From an uncultured virus (IMG/VR IMGVR_UViG_3300000302_000058) (taxonomy: Duplodnaviria; Heunggongvirae; Uroviricota; Caudoviricetes), in IMG/VR virus record IMGVR_UViG_3300000302_000058: a DNA stretch of 64,000 nucleotides. One strand, written 5' to 3'. The translations under genes and the position numbers were made by a program. How positions within the stretch are numbered: the stretch's first letter is position 1; every line of letters starts with the position of its first letter. Positions 38,184 through 64,000 of this stretch are shown here, piece after piece. The notes beneath the pieces are model-generated. The model was not told the DNA's origin. It did no database searches and saw only the letters and a program-made list of their open reading frames with translations.

Positions 38184-41100
38184 CTAATCACCAAGCTTGT
38201 TTAGATGGTCGTGTTTTACACGGTCTTCTGTCTCTGCTTGTTTTCCTTTATTAAAAGCTGTCTTATAATTGCCGGTTAAATATCCTGTTACTCGACGAAG
38301 TTGCTGAATATTTTCACTCCCACACTCAGGACATTCATCATTAAATTCGTCACAGTATCCGCAGTCTAAACAAGTATCATTAGGAACATTAACGGCAAAA
38401 TAAGGAATGTCTTTATCCATAGCATAGTTTACAATAGTTTCAAGACCATCAATATTATTTTTAACAGTTCCTTCAAGTTCAACATAGGTAATACAGCCTG
38501 CTGAGCTATATCCTGTAAGCTGTGATTCAATATCAATCTTTTCAAACGGGGTAAGTTTGTGCCATACAGGAACGTGAATGGAATTTGTAAAATAGTCGTG
38601 GTCAGATACGTGTTCAATCTCACCATACCTAGCCTTGAACTTTTTCATTGCTGTATAGCAAAGATTTTCAGCGGGAGTATAATATACTCCAAAGTTTAGT
38701 TTGTATTCTTGTTTAAACTCTTTGCAACGCTTTTGGAACAAGGCTTCAATTTGCTTTGCTAGTTCCATTCCTTCTTCAGTTGTTTGGTCTGTCCCAATAA
38801 GAAGTTGAAGAGTTTCTGCTAAAGCAATCTGTCCAATAGCAAGAGTTCCGTGTTTCATAGCACTACGGATTCCCTCTTCGGGAATGTAACCTTCCATCGT
38901 ACCATTTTCCCACATAAACTTTGCAGCTTCAGGAGATTGAGAGCAAATCCAATCAAAACGCTCGATAAGCATATCTTTGGCTTCGTGAATCTTTTGGTCA
39001 AGAAGATTCATAAAACTATTAACATCGCAATTAGCTTCCATTGCTAAAGTTGGAAGAATGATAGTGACAGGACAAATATTACCACGTCCATCTTTGCGTT
39101 GTTCAAAACCGTTAATATCATACCCGTTATAAGTTCTACACGTATTATCCTATGTCACCATAGGTACTGACTATATCTTCTATTCTATTAGAATAGCCTT
39201 CCGCTTCGAGCTAGTGCCTATCTCTAGCTCTACTCCCTTACATTCATCAGGGATAGTCGATACACTTTAGTTTATTTTTGTAATTTGATATTGTCCTACC
39301 GTGAAAACTTTATCGTATTTATACGCTTTAGCGGCGAAAGCGTGCGGCTTAGTTTGATAAAAAACTTCTGCCGAAGTATAACTGGGAAACATATGAAATT
39401 CACCAGTATTTAAATCGCAAACTTGAATAGGTTGTGCTCTAGTTGACCCTTTTCGAACACTAAAATCACGATAGTTTTCTTCAGCATAGGCGAATGCCCA
39501 TTGCTCCTTATAAAGACATTTAGTCTTGCCAGAGCATCTTCTAGTGATAAAATTATGATTGCTCTCTTTAAAATACTGCTGGCACTCTGATAGACTATCA
39601 AAGAATAATTCTTCTTGCGTATTTATATTTTTACATTTTACTTTTTTAGCCGCAGGATTTTTACCGCCTAATTTAGAGTCTCTAATTTTAGAGGATATTT
39701 GTTGCATTTCTTGTTCAGTTTTATTTAGATATGTATTACCACCGCATTTAAATATATCGTGAGTTTCGTTATATCCGTCCTCACATGCGTGATAATACCC
39801 AATCCAATAATATTCTTTTTGAGTTAGCTCTTCTTGAGATTCAGCTGTATCAATTACTTCAGCAACAAAATTTTCTACTCCATACTTTCGTAACGCTCTA
39901 GCAAAATGAGTATCTAATCGACCTGATAAAGCATCTTGTTTGTGTCGATTAAAACGCTGCTCTAAAGAATTAACTGTTTGTCCAACATAAACTTTATTGT
40001 TAATAATATTAGTAATTTTATATACTATCATTTGGGCATCCTTTCTATAGTGTTTATACTATATATGAAAAATGTGCCGCACATTTATCACTATTATGCC
40101 CAAAATTCTACAAAAATAAACTCTTAGCACGGTCTCAACTTATAAAGTCCTAACCGTTAGCCCGCATAGCGGACACCCTCGGGCGAGGTTCAAAAGGTTT
40201 TATATGAGCTGTAGTTTTCACTTACCCATAGTTCCCATATAAGTACAAGGGTCATTTTTATCATATCCTTCATTAACAGACCAATCAATATTGGCATAGT
40301 TAGGATAAAGTCGCTGAGCAGTAGACTTTAAAGCTAAACGGTACAAGTCATAGTTAGGGTCGTTAGGATGTTTATTAATTCCTTCTCCTATCTGAAAAAT
40401 ACCACACGGGAAAATACTTGTGCGATGTAGTTTTCCAAGCCCCTCAATAGAAACTTCAAGTAAAGCTCTAATTACCATTCTACCCTCTGGTAATGTGCAA
40501 GTGCCATAGTTAATGCTAGTAAAAGGTAATTGATTTCCAGACCTTGATTGTAGCGTATTAAGATTGTGATACATTCCTTCTACAGCCTGATGTGTTTCTT
40601 GAATGGTCTTATCCATTGCATATTTATACGCTTTTGGCTGAAGTTTATATTCATTATCTTCAATATTAGCATCTTCTGGAATATGTTTAGCATACTCGTC
40701 AATATTAAAAGCAAAATCATCTACGCAATATTTTAGTCCGTCAATAAAATGCTTCCTAAAGCTTTTACGAACATATGGTACCATAGTCCAATCAAGATGG
40801 GTAGCAGATACTCCTCCAAACTGCATTAAGCTTTGTAGTTGAAAAATAACTGCTACAAGCTGAAAAGCAGTATTAATAGAATTGGCTGGGCGAACATCAG
40901 TTTGTCTTGTCGTAAAACCTTTAGCAAGAAGTTTGTCAAAAGGAATCGAAAGGCAATTATGGTCGCCAAGAGCATAGTGAGAAAGGTCGTGAATATAAAT
41001 CTCATTATTAAGATGATTGTCTCGTGCCATCTTACTCATAAGGTGATTAAGAGCGTATTCACGCAAAACTTCATCCGCAACCTCTCCCATTCTGCCGCCG

Positions 41101-41480
41101 AAAGAATGTTCGTCCACGTTGGCATTTTGATTTTGAACATTTGAGGCAAATAACTTAGAAGCAATTGTATCATCAAAAGCTTGTTGATGTTTCTTTTGTC
41201 GCTCTAATTCGTGCTCGTAGCGATAACGGATATATGCCTTAGCAACATTATAATAACCCATTTCCATCAACGAGCGTTCAACAATATCTTGAATTTTTTC
41301 CACTTCAATAGCATCACTTAGTTCTTGATAGGCGTTAATATATCCCATTATATGAGCAAGAACTCCGTTGTCATTACATTCTTGCCTATTTACGTCTTGA
41401 AAAGCACCATTAACAGCATTTTGAATCTTCTGCTTATCAAATGGAACTGTGCGGCCATCACGTTTGATAACCGTATTCAT
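38184..41480 (-). CDS. nrdD: Class III ribonucleotide reductase, 2 exons (41480-40224 + 39140-38184)
   Basis: ATP cone, NQLPFTSINYG, spliced YMGTMG|CRTYNG, TPAENL, RRVTGYL. Confidence 0.92.
39267..40031 (-). CDS. Intron-encoded GIY-YIG homing endonuclease
   Basis: IVYKITN...VYVGQT...R...E.YWI...GYN; NUMOD-type C-terminus. Confidence 0.9.
   Translation of the reverse strand: MIVYKITNIINNKVYVGQTVNSLEQRFNRHKQDALSGRLDTHFARALRKYGVENFVAEVIDTAESQEELTQKEYYWIGYYHACEDGYNETHDIFKCGGNTYLNKTEQEMQQISSKIRDSKLGGKNPAAKKVKCKNINTQEELFFDSLSECQQYFKESNHNFITRRCSGKTKCLYKEQWAFAYAEENYRDFSVRKGSTRAQPIQVCDLNTGEFHMFPSYTSAEVFYQTKPHAFAAKAYKYDKVFTVGQYQITKIN
40060..40101 (-). promoter_or_regulatory. Putative phage-specific promoter inside the intron, upstream of the HEG
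   Basis: gggc ataatagtga taaatgtgcg gcacattttt catatatag. Confidence 0.55.
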
Positions 41481-45400: not shown

Positions 45401-46446
45401 GTCAAGAATCTCCATAGAGTTAGCACAAAGTTCCTCGTAATTTAATCCAGTTCCTTCAAGATTGCGGCGAATCTCTTCTTCTGATTGAAGATAGCAATAT
45501 TCGTAGAAAGAATCTACTTCTCGTTCACCTTCTTTGGAGTTAAGAAAAGCCTTGTGAACAAAGCGGTCTTCTTTACGAAGATAGTGAGCATCTTCGGTAA
45601 CGCAGATGGGAAGACTAAATGNNNNNNNNNNNNNNNNNNNNNNNNNNNNNNNNNNNNNNNNNNNNNNNNNNNNNNNNNNNNNNNNNNNNNNNNNNNNNNN
45701 NNNNNNNNNNNNNNNNNNNGCGGACATTCGCTTGTTCACAGTAATCTGTTCATCTGAACAAGCAGATTGTACCTCTAGAGAAACATTATCTTGACCATAA
45801 GTATTGATACACCATTCAAGGAAACGGACAATTTTTTCGTGAGCTTGCTTCTCACCTGCAATGTTTCCAAGAGTCTCAGCTTCAGTCAGCTCTAGAATAG
45901 CACGGTCAAGTTCAGAACCAAGACAAGCGGTCGAAGCGTAGATGTGTCCTTGACCATATCGCCGCACAACGTCTTCTNNNNNNNNNNNNNNNNNNNNNNN
46001 NNNNNNNNNNNNNNNNNNNNNNNNNNNNNNNNNNNNNNNNNNNNNNNNNNNNNNNNNNNNNNNNNNNNNNTCTTTAAAGTTGGGACTCGTTCCATTCCTC
46101 TATCATAGTAACTATTCATCCAAGCAATAGATGAAAGTTCTCGAAGCATCTTACAGCCAACAGAGTCTAGTGCTAATAAAACGTGATGCCAATATTGTTG
46201 TCCAGTATTACGGGTATCAGTTAGATAAATTTCATTTCCACGGACTATTTTTATATCAGTATATTTATTTTGTAATCTATCTAACTCAATAAAGTTACCA
46301 AGTGATTCATGGTTAGTAAAGCCTATTCCCGCAAAAGATAATTCGATAGCTCTTTGTATCATTTCTTCAGCACGATTTGTGCTATCTAACAATCGAATAT
46401 TGCTATAGTGGTCATGGTTGTGATAACTAAAACGAGGTATTATCAT
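42440..46446 (-). CDS. dnaE: DNA polymerase III alpha subunit (two N gaps)
   Basis: PHP HNHDHYS, ACLG, DAHY; RGSAAS, PDIDID, HASG, OB-fold end; ATG 46446 overlaps HEG stop (ATGA). Confidence 0.9.
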
Positions 46447-47306
46447 AAATACTCCCATCTATAACCACAAGAAGTTCCGTGCATTCTTGCGGCTCTACAT
46501 ATTCCACTTTTATCCTTAATTCCTAAAGATTGAGCGGCTTCTTTAGCACTATTATACTGAGCAATAAATTTTCCTTCTTTATCTAATTGTTGTATAGCTT
46601 TACTTCGATGCCGGATATTGCGTTTATTGTAATTATCTACCCATTGTTGAATATTTCTTTTATCGTCTTTATATTTCCATAAAAATCCATAGGCACTGTA
46701 TTGTTCTTGTCTACACACATTAGACACCGCACTTTGTAGATAGCCAGAGGAAGAACATTCAGTAGCAGAACTCCATTCCTTTATAAAAGTCCCATCTAAT
46801 GAATATTGTATAACCGGTTTACTTTGCCATTCACTCCATTTTTCTTTTTTCTTTCTATCAACTACCTCTTCATGTGAAACTCCAAGCTGATGTAAACGAG
46901 AACTGATAGTTAAAGGTTGAGCGTTTAAAATTTCGGCAATTTCATTCCGAGAAAAACCTTTTTCCCATAATTCTTTAATTTTTTGAGAAGAATAAGGGGT
47001 TCTACCAGACCCTTCTACTACATAATTATAACCTTTTTGCGGGTCATTAGATTGATATTTTAGAATATATTCTGTTTCTACCCTAAATCTTTCATTATCA
47101 GGACACTCGTCAATTACTTCAAAAATAAAAGAATCAACACCGTATTTTCTAATAGCACAATGTAAATGATATAGACGTCCATGTTTAGAAGTAGGACATA
47201 GTGATTCGCTTTTATGTTCGTTCCATCGTAAAGAAGGCTGCCTAATAGTTTGACCAATATAGATTTTATTGTTCAAAATATTTGTAATCTTATATATATA
47301 GGCCAT
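46443..47306 (-). CDS. Free-standing GIY-YIG homing endonuclease with NUMOD1-like repeats
   Basis: YIYKITN...IYIGQT; two KPVIQY/KAIQQL...G..W units. Confidence 0.85.
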   Translation of the reverse strand: MAYIYKITNILNNKIYIGQTIRQPSLRWNEHKSESLCPTSKHGRLYHLHCAIRKYGVDSFIFEVIDECPDNERFRVETEYILKYQSNDPQKGYNYVVEGSGRTPYSSQKIKELWEKGFSRNEIAEILNAQPLTISSRLHQLGVSHEEVVDRKKKEKWSEWQSKPVIQYSLDGTFIKEWSSATECSSSGYLQSAVSNVCRQEQYSAYGFLWKYKDDKRNIQQWVDNYNKRNIRHRSKAIQQLDKEGKFIAQYNSAKEAAQSLGIKDKSGICRAARMHGTSCGYRWEYL

Positions 47307-47398: not shown

Positions 47399-47446
47399 AT
47401 TATAGCAAAAAAGTGCATAGCTTGTCAACTACAAACTATGCACTTC
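47399..47446 (-). promoter_or_regulatory. Sigma70 promoter embedded in a terminator hairpin
   Basis: TTGACA-18-TATAAT (extended TG) inside aagtgcatag / ctatgcactt plus T-run. Confidence 0.65.
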
Positions 47447-47450
47447 TTAA

Positions 47451-47747
47451 TTATTCTTCACTCGGCTGACGAGCTTTAATATTATCTACTTGCTCTTGGA
47501 GAGTGTCTACAATAAACTTATATCCTGCTTCTCCAAACTCATAAAGTATCTCTTTGCGAANNNNNNNNNNNNNNNNNNNNNNNNNNNNNNNNNNNNNNNN
47601 NNNNNNNNNNNNNNNNNNNNNNNNNNNNNNNNNNNNNNNNNNNNNNNNNNNNNNNNNAAGAGCCGTACAACCATCGCCCTTTAACACGGTCATAATATTG
47701 TCTAGGTCGATTAATTCTGAACCAAGATTAATTTTATATTTAAACAT
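47451..47747 (-). CDS. Hypothetical protein (N gap)
   Basis: Open frame on both sides of the gap. Confidence 0.5.
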   Translation of the reverse strand: MFKYKINLGSELIDLDNIMTVLKGDGCTALXXXXXXXXXXXXXXXXXXXXXXXXXXXXXXXXXRKEILYEFGEAGYKFIVDTLQEQVDNIKARQPSEE

Positions 47748-47763
47748 CTAAACCCCCTGTTTT

Positions 47764-48498
47764 TTATAAGGTGTATAGTCGTTCTGGTCGATATTTTCTA
47801 TTACTTTTATCTAATTGTTGCCGCACTTCTTTTTCCCAGACTAATTTAAAATCATTGGGCATCCACGCTTCACTCATAAAAATTGTAGCTTTTTTAGATA
47901 CATTTCGGCACCAGTCATAATATTCATCATAGGGAAAATCTTCAATGTCCTTATATTTTTTTGTGCCGCGATAGGGAGGGTCACAATAGACGACAGCTCC
48001 ATCTGGAACGTCAATATCCCTAAAATCCGCGCACTCAAATTTTACGTCTTTAATCTTGGGGGCTTGTTTTAGAATATTTCTAACTGATTCATTTGTGTAA
48101 TCACGAACTTTGCTGGGATTTTTACTATCGTGATAAGGGTTAGAATAACCATTAAACCAACCAGCCCCAAAAGACGCACAGAATCCAACTAGACCAACAT
48201 ACCAATCAGGATAATCTTGCGGCGAACCTTTAACCGCGTAATACTCTTCCTTTGATATAGTTAGCGGAATATCTTCTGTAGTCTTTTGGATATGCTTCCA
48301 CATAGCTACCAGATATGGGTGAGAATCATAGTACAGACGATTCTCACAGTGAATATCGTCTATTACATTTGCCCCTCCCCCGAACGGTTCTAAATAGACA
48401 GTCGCGTGAGTATCATCAATAGCCTTTTGAAGGATTGGAGTAATACTCTTTTTCAATCGACGTTTGCTTCCAATATATTTCATATTTAAAATATCCAT
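47764..48498 (-). CDS. DNA adenine methyltransferase (D12/Dam-like class)
   Basis: KYIGSK, EPFGGG, YCDPPY. Confidence 0.85.
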   Translation of the reverse strand: MDILNMKYIGSKRRLKKSITPILQKAIDDTHATVYLEPFGGGANVIDDIHCENRLYYDSHPYLVAMWKHIQKTTEDIPLTISKEEYYAVKGSPQDYPDWYVGLVGFCASFGAGWFNGYSNPYHDSKNPSKVRDYTNESVRNILKQAPKIKDVKFECADFRDIDVPDGAVVYCDPPYRGTKKYKDIEDFPYDEYYDWCRNVSKKATIFMSEAWMPNDFKLVWEKEVRQQLDKSNRKYRPERLYTL

Positions 48499-48557
48499 TT
48501 CTGTTGTAGTTCAAAATCATCAATTAAGATTTGCGGCGTTACGATATCATTCCAAAT
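48486..48557 (-). pseudogene. Orphan duplicate of the recJ 3' end
   Basis: IWNDIVTPQILIDDFELQQKWIF* vs recJ VWDNKVTSQILIDDYEIETKWIF*. Confidence 0.85.
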
Positions 48558-49138
48558 TATACATATTGCCAAGTAAATCCACCAGCGGTTTTTTGCCTAC
48601 CGAGGCAAACGGCAGATATATTTTGATGCAATACACCAGTTATAGACTCGGCTTCTCTGGTGGAAGCATATATTTGATTAGTTTCTACACATAATACTTT
48701 TTTACCATGTATATGAGTATTATAATTAGGATTGTTTATACCGCTCATTTCTTTAGAATGTTTGTCACACCATTCTTTAGAATGACGAAATCCTAATATC
48801 CCCTCACCGCCAGCTGTAAGATTATAACCTTGGTCGTTATCGTTACTATTATAGCATTTTATCCAATACTGTTCTCTTTCTGAACTAATTTCTTGATATT
48901 TTTCTTCTGGTATTAATTCTAAAAGTTGTGCGGAAAAATTTTCTATGCCATATTTTCTAATTGCTCTATGAACATAGCTAGCTCCAACGCCTCCGTATCT
49001 TACCGCAGTTTTATGATGACTTAATCTATTTCGTATATTAATACTTTTGCCAATATACTTTTTGTTATTAATAAGATTCGTTAATAGATAAATACCAGCG
49101 ATTTTTGTTGGTATTAATTTCTCCCCTAAAAAATCCAT
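48557..49138 (-). CDS. Free-standing GIY-YIG homing endonuclease
   Basis: GIYLLTN...KYIGKS; GYNLTAGGEG; NUMOD3/NUMOD1-like tail. Confidence 0.85.
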   Translation of the reverse strand: MDFLGEKLIPTKIAGIYLLTNLINNKKYIGKSINIRNRLSHHKTAVRYGGVGASYVHRAIRKYGIENFSAQLLELIPEEKYQEISSEREQYWIKCYNSNDNDQGYNLTAGGEGILGFRHSKEWCDKHSKEMSGINNPNYNTHIHGKKVLCVETNQIYASTREAESITGVLHQNISAVCLGRQKTAGGFTWQYV

Positions 49139-50901
49139 TTTGTTTCTATTTCGTAGTCATCTATTAAAATTTGAGAAGTCACTTTATTGTCCCAAACATT
49201 TTTTTGACAAGTTCCAACAACAGTAAGACAAGTGTTTGGTTGAATAAATTGCTCGTACTCCTCTTCACTCGATTGGAATTTCATAAAGTCAACACCATTA
49301 CAACTAATTTTTAAAGTAGGCTTGCCCTTTGTCAAACCAAGAATCTGAACATTATTTTCTGAAAGAGGAATATCCTTGACCGCAACAGTAGCTTGTGGCA
49401 TTTCCTGACCCCAAATATCTAGCTCGGCAATCTCGATAATAGTCTGCGGATTTAGCTGAGAAGGTGCCCAAATAAAGTCTACCATATAAGCTGGCGTAAA
49501 ATCAACGTCTTTATATAGCTCATTGGTCTTTTGGATAAATGCTGCTACGTTCTTTTCTGGGATAGAACACCCGAAAGCCGCAGGATGCCCAGAAGCATAT
49601 TCCACAAGCCCTGTAGACTCACACAATTGCCGCATATCTTTAATAGAACAATAAGAGTAATTGCGTCCAGAGCCACGATAAAAATATTCTTTATCATCTT
49701 TAGTTTTCGTGCGGCGAAGAACGAGCGCTGGATGCTGATATTTAGCTTGTAATTTGTTTGCTACCAACCCAGCGATGTTAGCTTCAACCTCGTCAGGTTC
49801 ACAAAGAAGCAACAAGATAGCGTTGTCTGTTAGATGTTGCTCTTGGATTCGGCGCTCTAACAGTTCAACAGTTTCTTGGGTTAGTTTATCTTGGCGGCGT
49901 TTAACTCTTTCTGCTGTCGTAACAGCTTCTTGATAGTGAAAAACATATACACCTTTTTCACCACGTTTAGAAGATTCTACTTTTTCAAAAGCGTATTGCG
50001 TGAGCATACCCTTAAACACCGTATCTTGTTCTTCCAGCGTACCGCTGCGAGTCATAGCATTAATAAAAGGTACCGCCGCAAAAGCCATGCTTAAATAGTT
50101 GATGCCATTTCGCTTATCTAAAGTAAACTTATGTTTCTGACAAAGCTCATAAAGAAAAGGATTCTTTATGTTAGCAAATCCTTCGTTGATGATTGCTCGA
50201 ATTTCAAGCTCTCGATAATCTGCCATATCGCCGCAATTACCAAGAGCACATAAATCCATAAACTCTGTAGGTTGATTGCCGTGAATGATTAAATCTTCAA
50301 AAGCGGAAATAAAACGATAAGCAACACCTGCACCGGTTAACGCCTTATTTGGATACATACTATTCTGAACATTAATTACGATTGCGGGAGTTGAGTCAAC
50401 AGTTTCAATATCGTTGATTTCGTGATGGTCTAGAATAATAACTTGTATATTGCGTTTAATTGTTAATTCCATTTGCTGCTGCCAGTCGTTGCTTGCTGCA
50501 TCTGGAACGATAATCAAGTCACAATCAATCTTGTTCATCACGTCTGATAATCCGTGCTGTTTTCCATCGTGAAGAATATATGATAAATATTTCTCAGACC
50601 ATTCTGGTTTTCGGCTATAAAGATAGTTCATAATAATCGCCGCACTAGTATAACCGTCGCAATCACAGTCAGTAAGCACCTGTACGCGGCCATTGTTATT
50701 AATTACATTGGCAAGAGCATGACACGCTTCTTGCATCTTGTTCATATCATCAAGGTCTAACCAATCATACATATCACTCCAACCGGCTTTAAGCCACTTC
50801 TTCTGTTGCTCTGGTGTAGAGATGCCTCTATGATACATAATCTCTTCCACAGGGTTTATAAACCAATCAGGATGGATAGATTTATATAGTTTATATTCTA
50901 T
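49126..50901 (-). CDS. recJ: RecJ-like DHH ssDNA exonuclease (probable ATA start at 50901)
   Basis: DCDCDG, HGL, PD, LDHH, GAGV, GSGR, SGHPAAFG. Confidence 0.85.
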   Translation of the reverse strand: MEYKLYKSIHPDWFINPVEEIMYHRGISTPEQQKKWLKAGWSDMYDWLDLDDMNKMQEACHALANVINNNGRVQVLTDCDCDGYTSAAIIMNYLYSRKPEWSEKYLSYILHDGKQHGLSDVMNKIDCDLIIVPDAASNDWQQQMELTIKRNIQVIILDHHEINDIETVDSTPAIVINVQNSMYPNKALTGAGVAYRFISAFEDLIIHGNQPTEFMDLCALGNCGDMADYRELEIRAIINEGFANIKNPFLYELCQKHKFTLDKRNGINYLSMAFAAVPFINAMTRSGTLEEQDTVFKGMLTQYAFEKVESSKRGEKGVYVFHYQEAVTTAERVKRRQDKLTQETVELLERRIQEQHLTDNAILLLLCEPDEVEANIAGLVANKLQAKYQHPALVLRRTKTKDDKEYFYRGSGRNYSYCSIKDMRQLCESTGLVEYASGHPAAFGCSIPEKNVAAFIQKTNELYKDVDFTPAYMVDFIWAPSQLNPQTIIEIAELDIWGQEMPQATVAVKDIPLSENNVQILGLTKGKPTLKISCNGVDFMKFQSSEEEYEQFIQPNTCLTVVGTCQKNVWDNKVTSQILIDDYEIETKWIF

Positions 50902-52110: not shown

Positions 52111-55100
52111 CTACATCACCGGCTGTTCGATATCAAAAGCTGTAATTGGTAATTGTTTATAGTCCCAATCTGTAGCAAAAACTGTTTCGTAGCGACAAGT
52201 TGATTTATCCATTTGCATCCAAAGATAACCTCGGACAAAAGAGCCGCGACGATTCTTGTACACAGAGAGTTTGATGTTTGGCATTGGAAATCCTCTCTCT
52301 GCATATACTTGTAATTTCTCTTGGTCTGTCTCGGTAAGAGGAAGAAGAATGCTACCAAAATCAGCCTTTTCTGCAATTGCTTTACTGCCTTTAAGAAGGT
52401 TTGCGTCTGGTAGTGGGTCGGTTTTTGCACTCGTATAACTCCTATGTTTCCATAGTTACTGACTATATCTTACTCAGGAAAATATCACTGAGAACCCTGT
52501 TTCGGTTTTCAGAGGATTCGTTTCCTAAAACCTCGCTACGTATCAATAGTAGCCCTACTCCCCTGCCTTGCGACTTAGGGGATAGTCGATACACGGCTTA
52601 TTTTGTATTTCTATATTCCCATTGCTGGGTTTTACGATTAAATAATGGAATATCTGGATAAGGTTGTGAACGATAAATTAAACGATTAATATAGCCTATT
52701 TTAAATTGGGGGAATGCGTCGNNNNNNNNNNNNNNNNNNNNNNNNNNNNNNNNNNNNNNNNNNNNNNNNNNNNNNNNNNNNNNNNNNNNNNNNNNNNNNN
52801 NNNNNNNNNNNNNNNNNNNCTTGCAATGAACACATTGTTGCATATTTTTCCCGAATAGAAATTACGTCTTCTCTAGAGGCTACAATTCTTTTTTGTTTTA
52901 TTGCTTCTTTACCAATTGCGATATTTTTTTCAAGTGGTCGAAGCGGATAAGTATCTTTTTTATCGAACCACGTTTTGCCTGTATTAATATTNNNNNNNNN
53001 NNNNNNNNNNNNNNNNNNNNNNNNNNNNNNNNNNNNNNNNNNNNNNNNNNNNNNNNNNNNNNNNNNNNNNNNNNNNNNNNNNNNNNNNNNNGGAGAAAGA
53101 TTATATTGGTCTGCTATCGCTCGCATTGTAGAACTCCCGTTACGAAGTTCTTCTTTTATGGTTTCTACTTGCTCTTGTGATAAGATAGCTCTTGAATGTC
53201 GCTCTCCTTTTAATCCAAAAGTGTCTTGCCCGCCACTAGCAAGGTTATATCCGTGTTCTTTACTATCACTTTGATATTGTTGAATCCAATATCTTTCTCG
53301 TTCATTCAATTGTTCTCGCAAACAACGTTCTAGTATTTCTATATATACATTTTCACGCCCATATTTACGCATAGCTCTATGGACAGGAAGCATATAGTCT
53401 CTTTGCGTTTTTGAATTGAGATTATCTTCGGTGGCATTAGCACTTAACCAGTGCTCGGTTATTCTTCTATAAATATCAGTTGATTGACCAATATAAACTT
53501 TTGAAGTTGTTAAAAAACCAATTTTATATATTCCACATATTTTCTCTCTCATAAAAGAACCTCCTAACTTGATAGTCAATCCTTTTATGAAAATACAAAA
53601 TACATCGCACGGGATTGACTTGATATATATTATACCCATTTTGCCGAATCGTTAAGCAAAAAGTGTTCATATATATTTTAGTTTTCCCCGTTAGCAATTA
53701 TCCAGTTTTGCCCAGATAATTACCCCGCTGATAAACGGATAAGGTGTTATTGCCAATACAAAAAGTTTAGCATTCGTCTGCGTCGCAGACATAATAAAAA
53801 CATTGAAATCGTTAGCTATCTCTTTTAATCTAGTTGATAGAAGCGATAAGATAATATCTTCACGCATCGCCATACCATGCGTTTGATTTGTTACTTCCGT
53901 TAAAAGACCAAGTGAACTATTGAGATAATCAAAAAATACTACTTTGGTGTGGTTAACACGAATATTCCTTTTGATTGTATTTTCTACTTGTTTAATCGTA
54001 TAGTCTGGTAAGATTTCAAGATATAGCGGCGATTCTTTTAGAACTTGTGCGGCTTGAACCATCACGGGGTCAGAAAAAGAAATACGCTGTAGTAAAATAT
54101 CTTCTTCGTTATAACCAGTCAAAAAAGCCAGTGCCATTGTTGTCAATTCCTCTACGTCAAGCTCTGTAGAGATAAACAGCACTGGTTGATTGTTCTTTTG
54201 TACCCATTCCCCATTTTCAGGGTCGAAGATAGCATTACAAGCCATATAGCAAGCATCGGCAAGCATTGAACGGGTTTTCACTTTGTTATCCTAAAGGCTT
54301 TTTATCCTTTAGTTCTTACGGTTTCCCGCAAGGTCGGCATATCTTTTCTGTTTTATAAACAGTCGGAGCCTCTTGGAGATATTATTTCAATCTCTATGCT
54401 CTGCGGCTGGTTTCCCTTCACCTCTGATTAGCATAGCCGAAGCTTTAGCCTTCCAGATTTTTTCTCCGATTTATAGTCGGCAAAACCATTACCGACTCCC
54501 GTAGGAGCACTTCTTAAATAATATTTTCCATATCTCGCTCCACGGGTAATTCCGTTCAATCCTTTGTCTGCGAACGGAGCACCTATTTCAGGCGTCTCCT
54601 CTAATGATGCTAGAACCTCTGCCACACTATCACCAATTCTAAGAGCGTGGTCTGTGGCATTGTCTACATATACATCACGCACAGTAAGTATCTTGTTATC
54701 CACTATGTCCGCAAGCTCGTTTAGTGATATGCGATTTAGATAGTTCTCTTGTTGCTCCTTCTTTTCTATGTCTAGAAGGTTGTCGGGGTCGTAAAGCCAA
54801 GTCATGTCAACTCCGGCTTTGGTGTATCCCCGCAAAAGTGTCATCTTTTTTAAACGACTGTAATAATAATCAAAGTTAGCAATGTCCGCAGTGTTAATAC
54901 AATTCTGTAACCACTCGCTACCCTTTGACTGTTGATATATGCCATAAGATTCTGGGTGTCCTTGAAGATAATCTTCAATTGTCTTTGGGGTAATTCTCTC
55001 TGCTCCCATTTGATGTAGATTAAAAATTGCCCCAAAAGCAACTCTGTGAATCTCAGTTACAAAATCATCTGCCGAGTAAAAGTATTGTCCATCTTCATTA

Positions 55101-57680: not shown

Positions 57681-58595
57681 TTACCCCTTGAGAGTGTTTG
57701 ATTGATTTCCACGCTTAGAATTCAGCCCAACAGTATCGGCTGAATACAAATCAATAAATTGACGCTCTTTAGCGTCCAAATCTTCAGGACTACAGCTTTC
57801 CAATAGCTCGAAAGAAAAATTCCAAACGCCGTCTCGCCGCATAGCTGCATAGAGCTGGTTGGCGTTACTCGCGGGCATAGCTCCCAAGCCGCACTTGATA
57901 TGGTCTATCCATCTTTTCTTGATGCTCTTGGATTGCCCAACATAACACTCTTGTGTTAGTTGGTCTGTAATCTTATAAATGCCGCACACTTCATCTTGCC
58001 CTAAAATACCAGATAAGAAAGCTTTCATTTTCTTTTGGAAAAATACAGACCAAATACACTTACCTAGAACTTCAGGAAATTTTAGTTTAGGCATAATGTT
58101 ATTTAGATATTCAACATCATGAATTTCATCGTCGGCCATAGGTACACAATACTTATCTGGCTGTTCTTGAACTTCACGTTCCTTTCGAGCGGCTTCTATA
58201 GCGGCGTCTCGTGTGCGTTTTAAAGAATCAAGCTCTTTTTGAACTTGCTTTTTTTCGTCTTCTAAAACTTGAACAAAAGATTCATAATCTGAATTTTGTT
58301 GATTGGCACGTCGTTTATACTCAACATCCAAAGCCTTAATCTTTTCATCATAAGCTTTTTGAGCAGACTGCTGAGCATCTTCAATCAATTGTTTTTTAGA
58401 TTGATATTCACGTTCGATTTGACTTATCCAAACTTGCTTATCTTGAATATCCTTTTCAATTGCTTGACGTTGCCGCAAAACTTCATCATTATTCAGTTGT
58501 TCTTGATGTGTTACAGTCTTTTGTCCTACAAAAAAGCTAATGACAATTAAGACTAAGGATGCCGCGATAATGCCAATTAAAATCGCGGCATCCAA
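57681..58595 (-). CDS. TM + coiled-coil + C-terminal GIY-YIG nuclease
   Basis: AAILIGIIAASLVLIVISFFVG; ~120-aa coiled coil; GIYKIT...YVGQS...RW...E. Confidence 0.8.
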   Translation of the reverse strand: MDAAILIGIIAASLVLIVISFFVGQKTVTHQEQLNNDEVLRQRQAIEKDIQDKQVWISQIEREYQSKKQLIEDAQQSAQKAYDEKIKALDVEYKRRANQQNSDYESFVQVLEDEKKQVQKELDSLKRTRDAAIEAARKEREVQEQPDKYCVPMADDEIHDVEYLNNIMPKLKFPEVLGKCIWSVFFQKKMKAFLSGILGQDEVCGIYKITDQLTQECYVGQSKSIKKRWIDHIKCGLGAMPASNANQLYAAMRRDGVWNFSFELLESCSPEDLDAKERQFIDLYSADTVGLNSKRGNQSNTLKG

Positions 58596-61005: not shown

Positions 61006-64000
61006 CCTCCTCAGAGTGTGCTAAGNNNNNNNNNNNNNNNNNNNNNNNNNNNNNNNNNNNNNNNNNNNNNNNNNNNNNNNNNNNNNNNNNNNNNNNNNNN
61101 NNNNNNNNNNNNNNNNNNNNNNNNNACACGTGGCTTAACAGCTTTGCCGTATAGCATTTCAAATTGCTGTTCTGTTTTATCTTTATCGCTAACTTCTAGT
61201 TGTACCATATTTCTAGTATTGGGGTTGAGCAAAGTATATTCAAGCTCTTCTGAATCCATTTCACCCACATATTATTCCTCTGTCACCAGAGGTACTGACT
61301 ATTTCTTCTATGATTATATAATCATAGTCTACCGTTTCAGATTACGTATCAATAGTAATCCTACTCCCCGACAAAGGGGATAGTCGATACAGGTTACGGT
61401 TGTATATGTTGATAGGTTTTATTTCTATAAATATTAGTAAAATTTTGTTTAGGAATTTCTTTATAATCTTGATATATAGAATTTAACGATTCACCTTGTT
61501 TAGCTCTTCTTCTAATATCAAGTATTTTTTCTTTTGAAACGTTATTATTACTCTTAGAGTTTCTAATATATTTATAAAAGTCTTTATTTTCTGTAGTATA
61601 TACGTCCATATGTATATCTTGCCAACTATATCCGTTCCAAATTTTCTTAAACCCACTTGTTCCTATTTTATCTTTAAATTGTTCGAAGATATCTTCTTGC
61701 ATCAAATGGTTTTTATAACATTCTCTAATGTAAAAAACTTCTTCATTAGTTAATTGAGTTTTAGGATGCTGTTCATCTTTTATGTTATCTCTAGCATCTC
61801 CTCCGGGGGTTTCATTATATCCATGAAAATAAGTGTCGTATAATTCAATGTATTTTATTTCTAAATCATTTAAACGCTCTTTGGATGTTTCCTCTAAAAC
61901 CTCAAATTTAAAATTACTTAATCCATATTTTCTTATTGCTCGATATAATGCTTTTTCATATTCTTTTCCAGCTGAACAATAAGCTCTCTTTTTATGAGAT
62001 TTCCATCTATTTTCTATATCTGTGCTTTGTCCAATATAGGAATGACCATTGATGCGATTTGTAATTTTATAGATACCTATCATATTAAATTCACCTTTCA
62101 TACTTATCGTAGAAAGATGATATACTATACAACCGTCTTCCCACGAGATTATCTTCCTATTATATATAAAGTTTCTAGCCCCTATTTTATTCAATATTGA
62201 CCAGAAGCAATAAAAAGACTTCCTCGTTAGCCGCAATTAAGCGACCCCGCTGATAAACGGAAAAGTAGATAAGGGCCAGACTATCTCTTACCCTTTTAAT
62301 CTTCCAATAGATTGAATCTTCTTACCATTCTTCTTTTGGTATTCACTTAGAGCAGTCTCATCTTTTAAATAGATATATTCATTCTTCTTAGTAGTTACTC
62401 TAAATAACGGTGGAATAGTTGAATATACATGTCCATTTAAAAGAAGTTCTGGACATATATACCACAAAATGTTGAACAGAAGATTCTCAATTGCCGCACC
62501 TGCTGGGTCAGCGTCAGTACAGGCAATAATTTTATTATAACGAAGTTTATTTTTATCATAGACAAGATGATTGTGACTGTCAAAATCCAAACCAAGAGCA
62601 ACGATAAGATTATTTACCTCTTGATTTTTTAACAGCTTATCCATCGTTGTTTTACGGGCAGAAATCATCATGCCCCGAACACCATAAATAGCTTGCGTCT
62701 CAGAATCACGTGCGGCCACAAGACCTGACATAGCACTTTTACCTTCGCAAATCAGTAGCTCTGCTTTACTTCTATCTTTAGTCCAAGCATCTACCAGTGT
62801 TGTTGGAAGTTTAAACACCTTGTCTTTTTTCTCAGCCTTTTTCTTTACTGCTTCGCGAGCCTTTTTAGCAGCTTCAGCCGCACGTCTAGCAAGCAAAGCT
62901 TTTTCGATAATCTTGCGGCCATCGTCGGGGTTGTTATCCAACCAAACTTCTAGTTGTTCACTAAAGACTTCGTTAAGGAATGGAACAAAATCTTTACTCA
63001 CGATTCGACTTTTAGTCTGGGCATCGTAAGAGATATTAGGCGAAACAAGATTAAAAACTAGCACTAATCCTTCTTGCAGAGAATCGCCATCTAGATTTTT
63101 ATCTTTCTCCTTTAGGATATTTTGTTCACGTGCCCATTTATTCATAATCTTGGTAATACAAGTCTTAATTGCGGTAATGTGTGGCCCCTGTTCTGTAAGT
63201 CCATAGTTCACATAAGCCACGATATGAGAGGAATTCTTGTCTGCATATCCTAGGCCGCAATCAATACTATATTTATCTTGTTGCTTTTGGAAAAAGAAAG
63301 GTTCTGAAATGGATTTATCTTTACCAGTAATTTGATTGACGAGATATCGCAGCCCCTCGGGATGATAAATCTTTTCTACCTTCTTATCGACAGAAAAGAT
63401 TATTTGTAGACTTGGGCACATGCCGCAAATATCATGGAACATTTTCCGTAAAAGATTAATATCTGGCAGGGGGGTTTCAAAAAATTCTTCGCTAGGTTTA
63501 AAAACGATAGTCGTACCGGAAAAGTGGTCTAATTTACCTCGTTCTCTTTTTTGAAAGACACCTTCTTTAAAAGTAATTTTTTCATAAGAAGAACCATCAT
63601 AAGAGGTAACAATAAAATAATGTGCAAGGAAGTTTGCGGCTTTACCGCCGACTCCGTTTAAACCAAGACTTGTGCCACCATATACGCCATCATCTGAATA
63701 TTTACCAGAGGTATTGATTTCATCAAATGAAGCTTGAAGAATTGTCTTACCGTCTTCTCGATGTTCCAAAAGAGGGAAACCTTGTCCTTGGTCAGAGACA
63801 ACACATTCTCCTGTTTTAGTATTGATTCCGATTTCAATCACATTACCGTGACCAAGATTATGTTCATCAAGAGCATTAGAAAAAAGCTCTACCAAGAGCT
63901 GTGTTGAATCCTTGGTAGAGCCTACATACATACCGGGCCTAAGCCGCACGTGCTCTAAAGGAGATAACGATTGAATTGAGTCTTTATCGTATAAAGTCTT
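60986..64000 (-). CDS. gyrB: Type IIA topoisomerase subunit B, 2 exons (>64000-62290 + 61267-~60986); starts beyond window
   Basis: RPGMYVG, E..SNALDE, GLNGVG, CEGKSA, DADPAG, spliced RLKG-L-GEM; post-gap frame LAHSEEVEVDYE*. Confidence 0.9.
61394..62083 (-). CDS. Intron-encoded GIY-YIG homing endonuclease
   Basis: SD aaaggtg; MIGIYKITN...YIGQS...GYNETPGG. Confidence 0.85.
   Translation of the reverse strand: MIGIYKITNRINGHSYIGQSTDIENRWKSHKKRAYCSAGKEYEKALYRAIRKYGLSNFKFEVLEETSKERLNDLEIKYIELYDTYFHGYNETPGGDARDNIKDEQHPKTQLTNEEVFYIRECYKNHLMQEDIFEQFKDKIGTSGFKKIWNGYSWQDIHMDVYTTENKDFYKYIRNSKSNNNVSKEKILDIRRRAKQGESLNSIYQDYKEIPKQNFTNIYRNKTYQHIQP
62161..62202 (-). promoter_or_regulatory. Putative phage-specific promoter inside the gyrB intron
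   Basis: ggtc aatattgaat aaaatagggg ctagaaactt tatatata. Confidence 0.5.

Follow-up and report, generated by a model that had tools for sequence, protein, structure and literature searches.

How can a homing endonuclease gene (HEG) settle within the coding sequence of a phage gene and leave that gene full length? The question is raised by a locus in 64,000 nucleotides (nt) of DNA from an uncultured virus of the Caudoviricetes (IMG/VR record IMGVR_UViG_3300000302_000058; the whole stretch analysed is called the window below), at which a gene for a RecJ/YorK-like single-strand DNA exonuclease (recJ) is followed by a GIY-YIG endonuclease gene and then by a second version of the recJ end. The answer we favour, with a probability of roughly 0.7, is that a mobile cassette with a free-standing GIY-YIG gene has invaded the last 23 codons of recJ, for which neither an intron nor an intein is needed. 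The cassette, 640 base pairs (bp) long, consists of a diverged recJ tail (copy A) and the HEG, whose start codon lies in that tail. Because it enters at codons -24/-23 and carries a tail along, recJ keeps its full length and terminates in the substitute, and the native end (copy B) persists intact but untranslated immediately behind the HEG.

Layout of the locus

In this part of the window, the minus strand encodes all genes. Read 5' to 3' on that strand, their order is primase pieces, the recJ-like gene, the GIY-YIG gene, a 72-nt stretch, a DNA methyltransferase (MTase) gene, a small open reading frame (ORF), a second GIY-YIG gene and a DnaE-type polymerase gene. The recJ end is composed of the following features:

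49126..50838, minus strand: RecJ/YorK-like single-strand DNA exonuclease gene, 570 amino acids (aa) from the ATG at 50838
49126..49197, minus strand: copy A, the replacement recJ end, 23 codons and TAG; translated end of recJ, contains the HEG start codon
48557..49138, minus strand: free-standing GIY-YIG homing endonuclease gene, 193 aa (Pfam GIY-YIG)
48557..49196, minus strand: inserted block of copy A and HEG, 640 bp (48552-49191 fits equally)
48486..48557, minus strand: copy B, the displaced native recJ end, 23 codons and TAA; untranslated scar in a frame different from that of the HEG

Delimited mechanically, the recJ ORF is slightly longer (574 aa from a GTG at 50850); recJ homologues begin MYHRGIS. 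Its product has Pfam matches above threshold to DHH (E = 1.9e-12) and RecJ_OB (E = 4.7e-10), and a match to DHHA1 (E = 2.4e-4, 21.9 bits) below the cut-off of 25.9 bits. The closest phage proteins are YorK of the SPbeta group, at ~33% identity, and all 217 matching records stay under 60%. Gene order and best phage matches point to an SPbeta-like replication module, and at the DNA level megablast against 50,697 phage records returned no match to 47700-50900.

A preliminary description, made from the letters of the window alone, had noted that the last 23 recJ codons recur in diverged form right behind the HEG stop, and this duplication is confirmed. Copy A, in which the RecJ-like ORF (570/574 aa) now terminates, reads VWDNKVTSQILIDDYEIETKWIF up to its stop, and copy B reads IWNDIVTPQILIDDFELQQKWIF up to its stop; the two agree, ungapped, at 50/72 nt and 15/23 residues. 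In a comparison of copy A with all 72-nt windows of the 64 kb, on either strand, the mean was 19.4 matches (standard deviation 4.35), and the runner-up after copy B reached 36. In an all-against-all blastp of the 2,894 stop-to-stop peptides of the window, the A/B pair, 640 nt apart, scored E = 8e-10. Chance as the source of the likeness is excluded. The remaining strong short-range pairs on the minus strand in this protein self-comparison are HEG paralogues or repeated domains, and it revealed no second duplicate flanking another HEG of the window.

The HEG overlaps copy A by 13 nt in a separate reading frame with its own start, an ATG that the K-W codons of copy A create 10 nt ahead of the recJ stop; since this start codon is part of copy A, tail and enzyme form one unit. 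At the other side, the first base of copy B is the last A of the HEG stop TAA (48557-48559). The insertion point is the boundary of recJ codons -24 and -23, at the 5-nt motif TTTGG. This motif is common to both junctions of the 640-bp block, so that the block boundaries are ambiguous by 5 nt. Nothing resembling a promoter or terminator exceeded background inside the cassette.

A splicing element would be another explanation of such a layout: the 640 nt could be a self-splicing intron, or the region could encode an intein, with copy B as the true last exon. The window offers some ground for this idea, as three other GIY-YIG genes precede a shared element of ~150 nt that resembles the 3' core of group I introns. 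This element, however, is absent from the recJ cassette, in which the HEG ORF occupies 582 of the 640 nt, with 58 nt outside it, and a search of 34000-64000 against Rfam produced no match at E <= 1. Copy A, moreover, ends in a stop codon and retains every conserved tail position, and is therefore a complete working end. An intein is contradicted by the HEG lying in another frame with its own start, and by recJ ending at the TAG in copy A. We consider a spliced arrangement extremely improbable.

The native end of recJ

Which of the two copies belongs to recJ can be read from relatives without the endonuclease. Eight related loci (L numbers) were taken from IMG/VR, with recJ relatives at 50-94% identity, and one more from a genome collection. 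Among the 8 related loci that include the recJ end, none has an HEG or a second tail behind recJ. The closest relative, L001, has 94% protein identity and 88.7% nt identity over recJ, and its native recJ end is identical to copy B at 65/72 positions and to copy A at 50/72; in all 7 loci compared, copy B is nearer than copy A to the native end. Along recJ, identity between the window and L001 is 80-96% per 75 nt and falls to 71% in the last 75 nt, where copy A starts. The BLAST alignments of L002, L005 and L008 end at 49208 and restart at 48554. At the protein level, the copy B peptide is identical to the native tail of relative P0129 at 23/23 residues and to three others at 22/23, whereas an A-type tail is absent from all 52 recJ cluster representatives (best match 15/23). 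Because copy B is nearer to the ends of the relatives and these have no duplication, copy B is the native end, and copy A came with the HEG.

These comparisons bear out what the preliminary description had proposed, namely that the cassette supplied a new end while the old one stayed behind as a scar: the copy behind the HEG is the ancestral one, and among the loci compared the duplication is confined to the HEG-bearing form. Its term "recoded" for the new end proved too strong. Copy A does differ from copy B, but 8 of 23 residues are changed, and therefore it looks like a diverged homologue and not a synonymous rewrite. Copy A is as distant from all native tails as distant lineages are from one another, and a foreign origin is the parsimonious reading.

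Presence and absence in natural populations

Logan contigs of four metagenome runs from 4 studies (X1, X2, X3 and X6) were aligned to 47700-50900 with an identity cut-off of 85%. All four runs contain HEG-bearing contigs with both junctions, at 96-99% identity, and in all four these are accompanied by HEG-less alleles. The joints in X1, X2 and X3 omit exactly 640 nt, leading from 48548 to 49189 or from 48551 to 49192, with 4-6 letters that fit either side; in X1 and X6, loose ends run from copy B directly into the recJ body. Downstream, homology stops exactly at the copy B stop (48486), and beyond it each run has different sequences. A 113-kb contig of X2 has 97.3% identity to the window in the block 48486-49266 (21 differences in 781), and its recJ body is ~79-82% identical or falls under the 85% cut-off. 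The contigs show the cassette as a presence/absence polymorphism at one fixed site in natural populations; they are strong hints, not proof. A further variant in X6 has 1,172 extra letters at 49569-49595, within recJ.

The HEG-less alleles also bear on the possibility that the recJ end was duplicated in tandem in situ, that an HEG was later inserted between the copies and that the upstream copy diverged fast. Equal length and common register of the copies would be expected from such an event, and no donor with a native A-type tail has come to light. Nevertheless, alleles that lack exactly the 640 nt do not fit it, nor does the lack of a duplication at all eight HEG-free loci. It would, in addition, require 22 changes in the 72 nt of copy A, while the gene is ~89% and the unselected scar 90% identical to L001, and the HEG start codon is built into copy A. 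An in-situ duplication is thus very unlikely.

The endonuclease

The GIY-YIG domain of the HEG product is recognized by Pfam (PF01541) with E = 1e-9 and 39 bits, against a cut-off of 22.6 bits. Its N-terminal half aligns with the catalytic domain of I-TevI (1LN0/1MK0, the closest solved structures; E = 7e-9) and keeps the GIY, YIG and GYN motifs as well as Arg and Glu opposite the positions that are mutated in 1LN0/1MK0. Judged by these residues, the enzyme looks active. The only canonical HEG start codon ahead of the GIY motif is the ATG in copy A, and hence the carried tail also supplies the translation start of the HEG; translation of the HEG is probably coupled to that of recJ. A Shine-Dalgarno-like GGGGAG is located at 49120-49127 on the minus strand, overlapping the last base of the recJ stop and within the first HEG codons, with no canonical start codon after it. 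Two HEG relatives, P0004 and P0005, begin 3 residues ahead of GIY, and the GGGGAG may be the relic of an earlier separate HEG start.

The enzyme is also widespread, its cluster at 90% identity having 25 members. Fifteen of these are listed; 13 of them are full length, differ from the copy in the window by 0-6 substitutions and together occur on 81 contigs, and the other two are shorter pieces. The next relatives outside this cluster are 44% identical. In viral and metagenome contig collections, the matches listed are all distant relatives, the best of them with 54% identity over 100 aa, although close copies may have escaped the listing. Three HEG matches that share a locus with a recJ relative (L016, L020 and L066) were rejected as instances of the same cassette: they lie 2-3.5 kb off, at 30-44% identity.

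Survey of recJ tails

From 211 recJ-family proteins gathered, 175 distinct sequences include the C-terminus. Their tails are native-type in 169, fully A-type in four (the window's own, P0181, P0182 and P0261) and chimeric in two. The full-A proteins are not grouped by their bodies: over 547 aa, the window protein has 12 differences from the B-tailed P0185 and 22 from the A-tailed P0181. In the first chimera, P0205, the first 15 residues of the tail are A-type, VWDNKVTPQILIDDY, followed by the native-type end of another lineage; its body is identical to its own lineage at 535/547 positions and to the window at 448/547. In the second, P0213, only VWDNKATPQ is A-type, followed by its own lineage's FELSQKWIF, and the body agrees with its own lineage at 540/547 and with the window at 406/547.

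Pieces of copy A in two diverged recJ lineages suggest ongoing gene conversion. Such patches would be expected from (i) break repair at the 5' part of the tail that was resolved without the HEG, (ii) cassette loss through recombination between the two copies or (iii) conversion between A and B inside one genome. All three origins would place the functionally important difference in the first tail codons. For the proposal that the native recJ end is the cleavage target and copy A immune, the chimeric tails may be regarded as circumstantial support.

A number of points weigh against a cassette that homes into the recJ end. The scar need not be the target, since cutting by the free-standing endonucleases of phage T4 usually takes place at a distance of hundreds to thousands of bp from the gene that encodes them, as stated in PMC2988022. 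No donor lineage for copy A was found, 0 of the 169 native tails being A-like. Pattern searches for the A tail, for the junction of recJ stop and HEG start and for the VWDNK patch had 0 matches in the viral and genome contigs. In the C-terminal part of the enzyme, residues 156-189 match an I-HmuI NUMOD-like domain at E = 2e-4 and 21.3 bits, below the cut-off of 27 bits. The population evidence consists of metagenome contigs, which can be chimeric, and of protein clusters. Finally, identity among the four full-A recJ bodies is 96-100%, and vertical descent with ordinary recombination could explain much of the distribution of A tails.

The close similarity of the full-A bodies and the distant cutting by T4 endonucleases would both suit a frozen accident: one illegitimate recombination would have joined a foreign recJ end, together with the HEG, to this recJ, the enzyme would now cut elsewhere or not at all, and presence and absence would result from ordinary homologous recombination among co-infecting relatives, with no homing at this site. 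That recJ 3' ends swap between lineages even without a cassette, one cluster (6) having two native tail types, also agrees with this account. It is difficult to reconcile, however, with an HEG that has conserved catalytic residues and of which 13 among the 15 listed cluster members are intact, with a cassette block that is 97% conserved within a recJ body of ~80% identity (X2), with A patches that do not extend beyond the 5' part of the tail in lineages with body identities of 74% and 82%, and with the joint occurrence of both forms in 4/4 runs. We therefore regard a frozen accident as unlikely, and retain the mobile cassette as the preferred explanation.

Other irregularities of recJ are seen in relatives. 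Among the relatives P0158, P0169, P0170 and P0173, three have a tandem repeat of 7 residues in the tail, e.g., ELEQRCELEQRWVF, and one is without ~31 residues through a deletion that stops at ...WN|DIVTPQ; the 3' end of recJ has the look of a rearrangement hot spot. Many recJ alleles (e.g., P0179, P0203 and P0228-P0236) end after ...EANICGSITLLAQ (around residue 355) or after ...GLVEYAQGQ (around residue 414), and in relatives recJ has probably been invaded at two further sites. At 6710-6737 of L007, the Trp codon of the tail reads TGA (NEK, stop, VF, stop), which points to truncation of recJ, to an error in sequencing or to TGA being read differently.

A possible homing mechanism

The mobile cassette could spread in the following manner: The enzyme would probably cut the native recJ tail of cassette-free phages in co-infection, and repair would copy tail A and the HEG from the co-infecting, cassette-bearing genome. 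The recJ body would serve as the left homology arm; the right arm might be the 72-nt scar or a microhomology. Copy A would escape cutting through its difference from the native tail at 22 of 72 nt. The founding insertion was probably a one-sided, microhomology-mediated break repair, as in T4, and its donor probably had the HEG directly behind a different recJ allele.

More tentatively, the scar may be a built-in right homology arm. Substitute tail, HEG and native tail would then constitute a splicing-free homing unit whose native tail is renewed by conversion with every recipient, and the chimeric tails would belong to phages that became immune when homing was abortive or the cassette was lost; we place this extension somewhat short of even odds. 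If it were true, the homing unit could enter any phage with a native recJ end, whatever gene follows, and the chimeras would mark the cleavage site in the first ~9 tail codons.

The occurrence of both alleles in the same samples indicates that an HEG can occupy phage coding sequence by carrying a spare gene end. The hybrid gene ends that such cassettes create can lead both gene trees and annotation astray. In turn, the stranded end provides a ready hypothesis for the target, which may be useful in the search for new site-specific GIY-YIG nucleases.

Neighbouring genes and other endonucleases of the window

Downstream of copy B, three further features precede the polymerase gene:

47764..48498, minus strand: D12-class N6-adenine DNA methyltransferase gene (Pfam MethyltransfD12, E = 3e-17)
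47451-47747, minus strand: small conserved ORF, downstream of the MTase gene
46443-47306, minus strand: second GIY-YIG gene (HEG2), ahead of the DnaE-type polymerase gene

The MTase gene is absent from all six compared loci with DNA downstream of recJ (L001, L002, L004-L006 and L008). Compared with L002 and L008, it has been inserted precisely between recJ stop and small ORF, and it does not belong to the cassette. In X6, a joint without the MTase gene (738 nt skipped, from 47747 to 48486) has the same depth, 60.5, as the cassette-bearing contig, from which it follows that cassette and MTase gene are independent insertions. A search of the viral contig collection for relatives of the MTase gave none. 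At its place, L001 has a 69-aa ORF and L005 a 246-aa ORF, and relatives carry a different, 229-aa DPPY methyltransferase further on.

The preliminary description had also pointed out that both the HEG and the MTase gene have an in-frame ATG within a copy of the same tail motif. Both genes do start there, at 49138 and 48498, respectively, each at the ATG in AAATGGAT, but the ATG of the MTase gene is uninformative: unrelated downstream ORFs in L001, L004 and L005 start at the same +1-frame ATG. The MTase gene has a second ATG five codons further, just past the copy B stop.

HEG2 was considered as a second cassette of this type and rejected, as it lies between the promoter and the start of the polymerase gene and has no duplicated end; its stop overlaps the polymerase start. 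The promoter, at 47399-47428 on the minus strand, matches the extended -10 consensus perfectly (12/12; TTGACA, 18 nt, TG-TATAAT) and lies in DNA whose aligned counterpart in L001 and L002 immediately precedes the polymerase gene.

At least six GIY-YIG genes are located in 34000-64000, among genes of replication and nucleotide metabolism. Directly behind three of them, at 39100-39260, 52440-52600 and 61250-61390 on the minus strand, is the shared element of ~150 nt:

39267-40031, minus strand: GIY-YIG gene inside nrdD, with the ~150-nt element behind it
52701-53639, minus strand: GIY-YIG gene inside the DnaB region, with the ~150-nt element behind it
61394-62236, minus strand: GIY-YIG gene between gyrB and gyrA, with the ~150-nt element behind it

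The element contains AGATATAGTCAGTAC, which we take to be the P7/3' core motif of group I introns, and these three HEGs are probably intron-borne, although Rfam had no match here either at E <= 1. The nrdD gene consists of two parts, 40218-41480 and 38184-39041. DnaB is fragmented in the window, whereas that of L001 is intact, with 505 aa. In a 304-aa ORF at 57681-58595 on the minus strand, GIY-YIG is confined to residues 204-286, behind ~200 other residues (weak DUF4407 match); this ORF may be a fusion or another gene-end arrangement.

Comparison with known systems

The principle is not new: it has been published for fungal mitochondria, and the recJ cassette is a phage case of it. The Allomyces example is reportedly the work of Paquin, Laforest and Lang. 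Mobile endonuclease ORFs (mORFs) that make "gene hybrids" in fungal mitochondria are treated by Beaudet et al. 2013 (PMC3630166), for Glomus atp6, atp9 (with a GIY-YIG enzyme), cox2 and nad3, and the paper cites Allomyces atp6, Rhizopus atp9 and Mortierella cox2. As at the recJ locus, an in-frame foreign C-terminus is followed by the endonuclease ORF and then by the stranded native C-terminus (PMC3630166). The degrees of identity to relatives are also alike: the native and the inserted end of Glomus atp6 have 91% and 63.5% nt identity, respectively, and those of recJ here 90% and 69%. Four features set the recJ cassette apart from the fungal mORFs: it resides in a bacteriophage instead of a mitochondrion, its duplication is short, with both copies exactly 72 nt long, the HEG start codon lies within the carried tail, and both alleles are found in the same samples, with chimeric tails present.

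For bacteriophages, a full-text literature search, supplements excluded, yielded no description of an HEG layout with a replacement end. The account of an ICP1 nuclease in PMC10448857 mentions interrupted genes, and its passages on them contain no such duplication. In the sections of PMC4162613 on the Sclerotinia mitochondrial genome, truncated copies of atp6 and atp9 are described and not tied to endonuclease ORFs, and we did not use them as a precedent.

The T4 Seg endonucleases, as described in PMC2988022, resemble the recJ HEG as free-standing GIY-YIG genes in a replication-gene region of a phage, and they spread by double-strand-break repair with co-conversion of flanking markers. In that description, Seg genes sit between genes, with no mention of a duplicated end, whereas the recJ cassette is inside coding sequence that is rescued by the tail. 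One-sided illegitimate break repair at microhomology is reported in PMC2988022 for T4 td intron homing, in an experimental system. The TTTGG at both junctions and the unrelated downstream DNA of the recJ locus fit such repair, with homology on one side and microhomology on the other; the td system thus offers a possible route for the origin of the cassette, not this layout itself.

I-TevI shares with the recJ enzyme the GIY-YIG catalytic domain with conserved Tyr, Arg, Glu and Asn positions. In contrast to it, the recJ HEG is free-standing and not intron-encoded, and its C-terminal half has only the sub-threshold NUMOD-like match. Finally, integrase-driven elements, such as prophages in tRNA genes and e14 or phage 21 in icd, enter gene 3' ends and bring a replacement end. 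The recJ cassette follows the same logic of invading and restoring a gene; those elements rely on site-specific recombinases and att sites, whereas here the part is taken by a GIY-YIG nuclease without an integrase.

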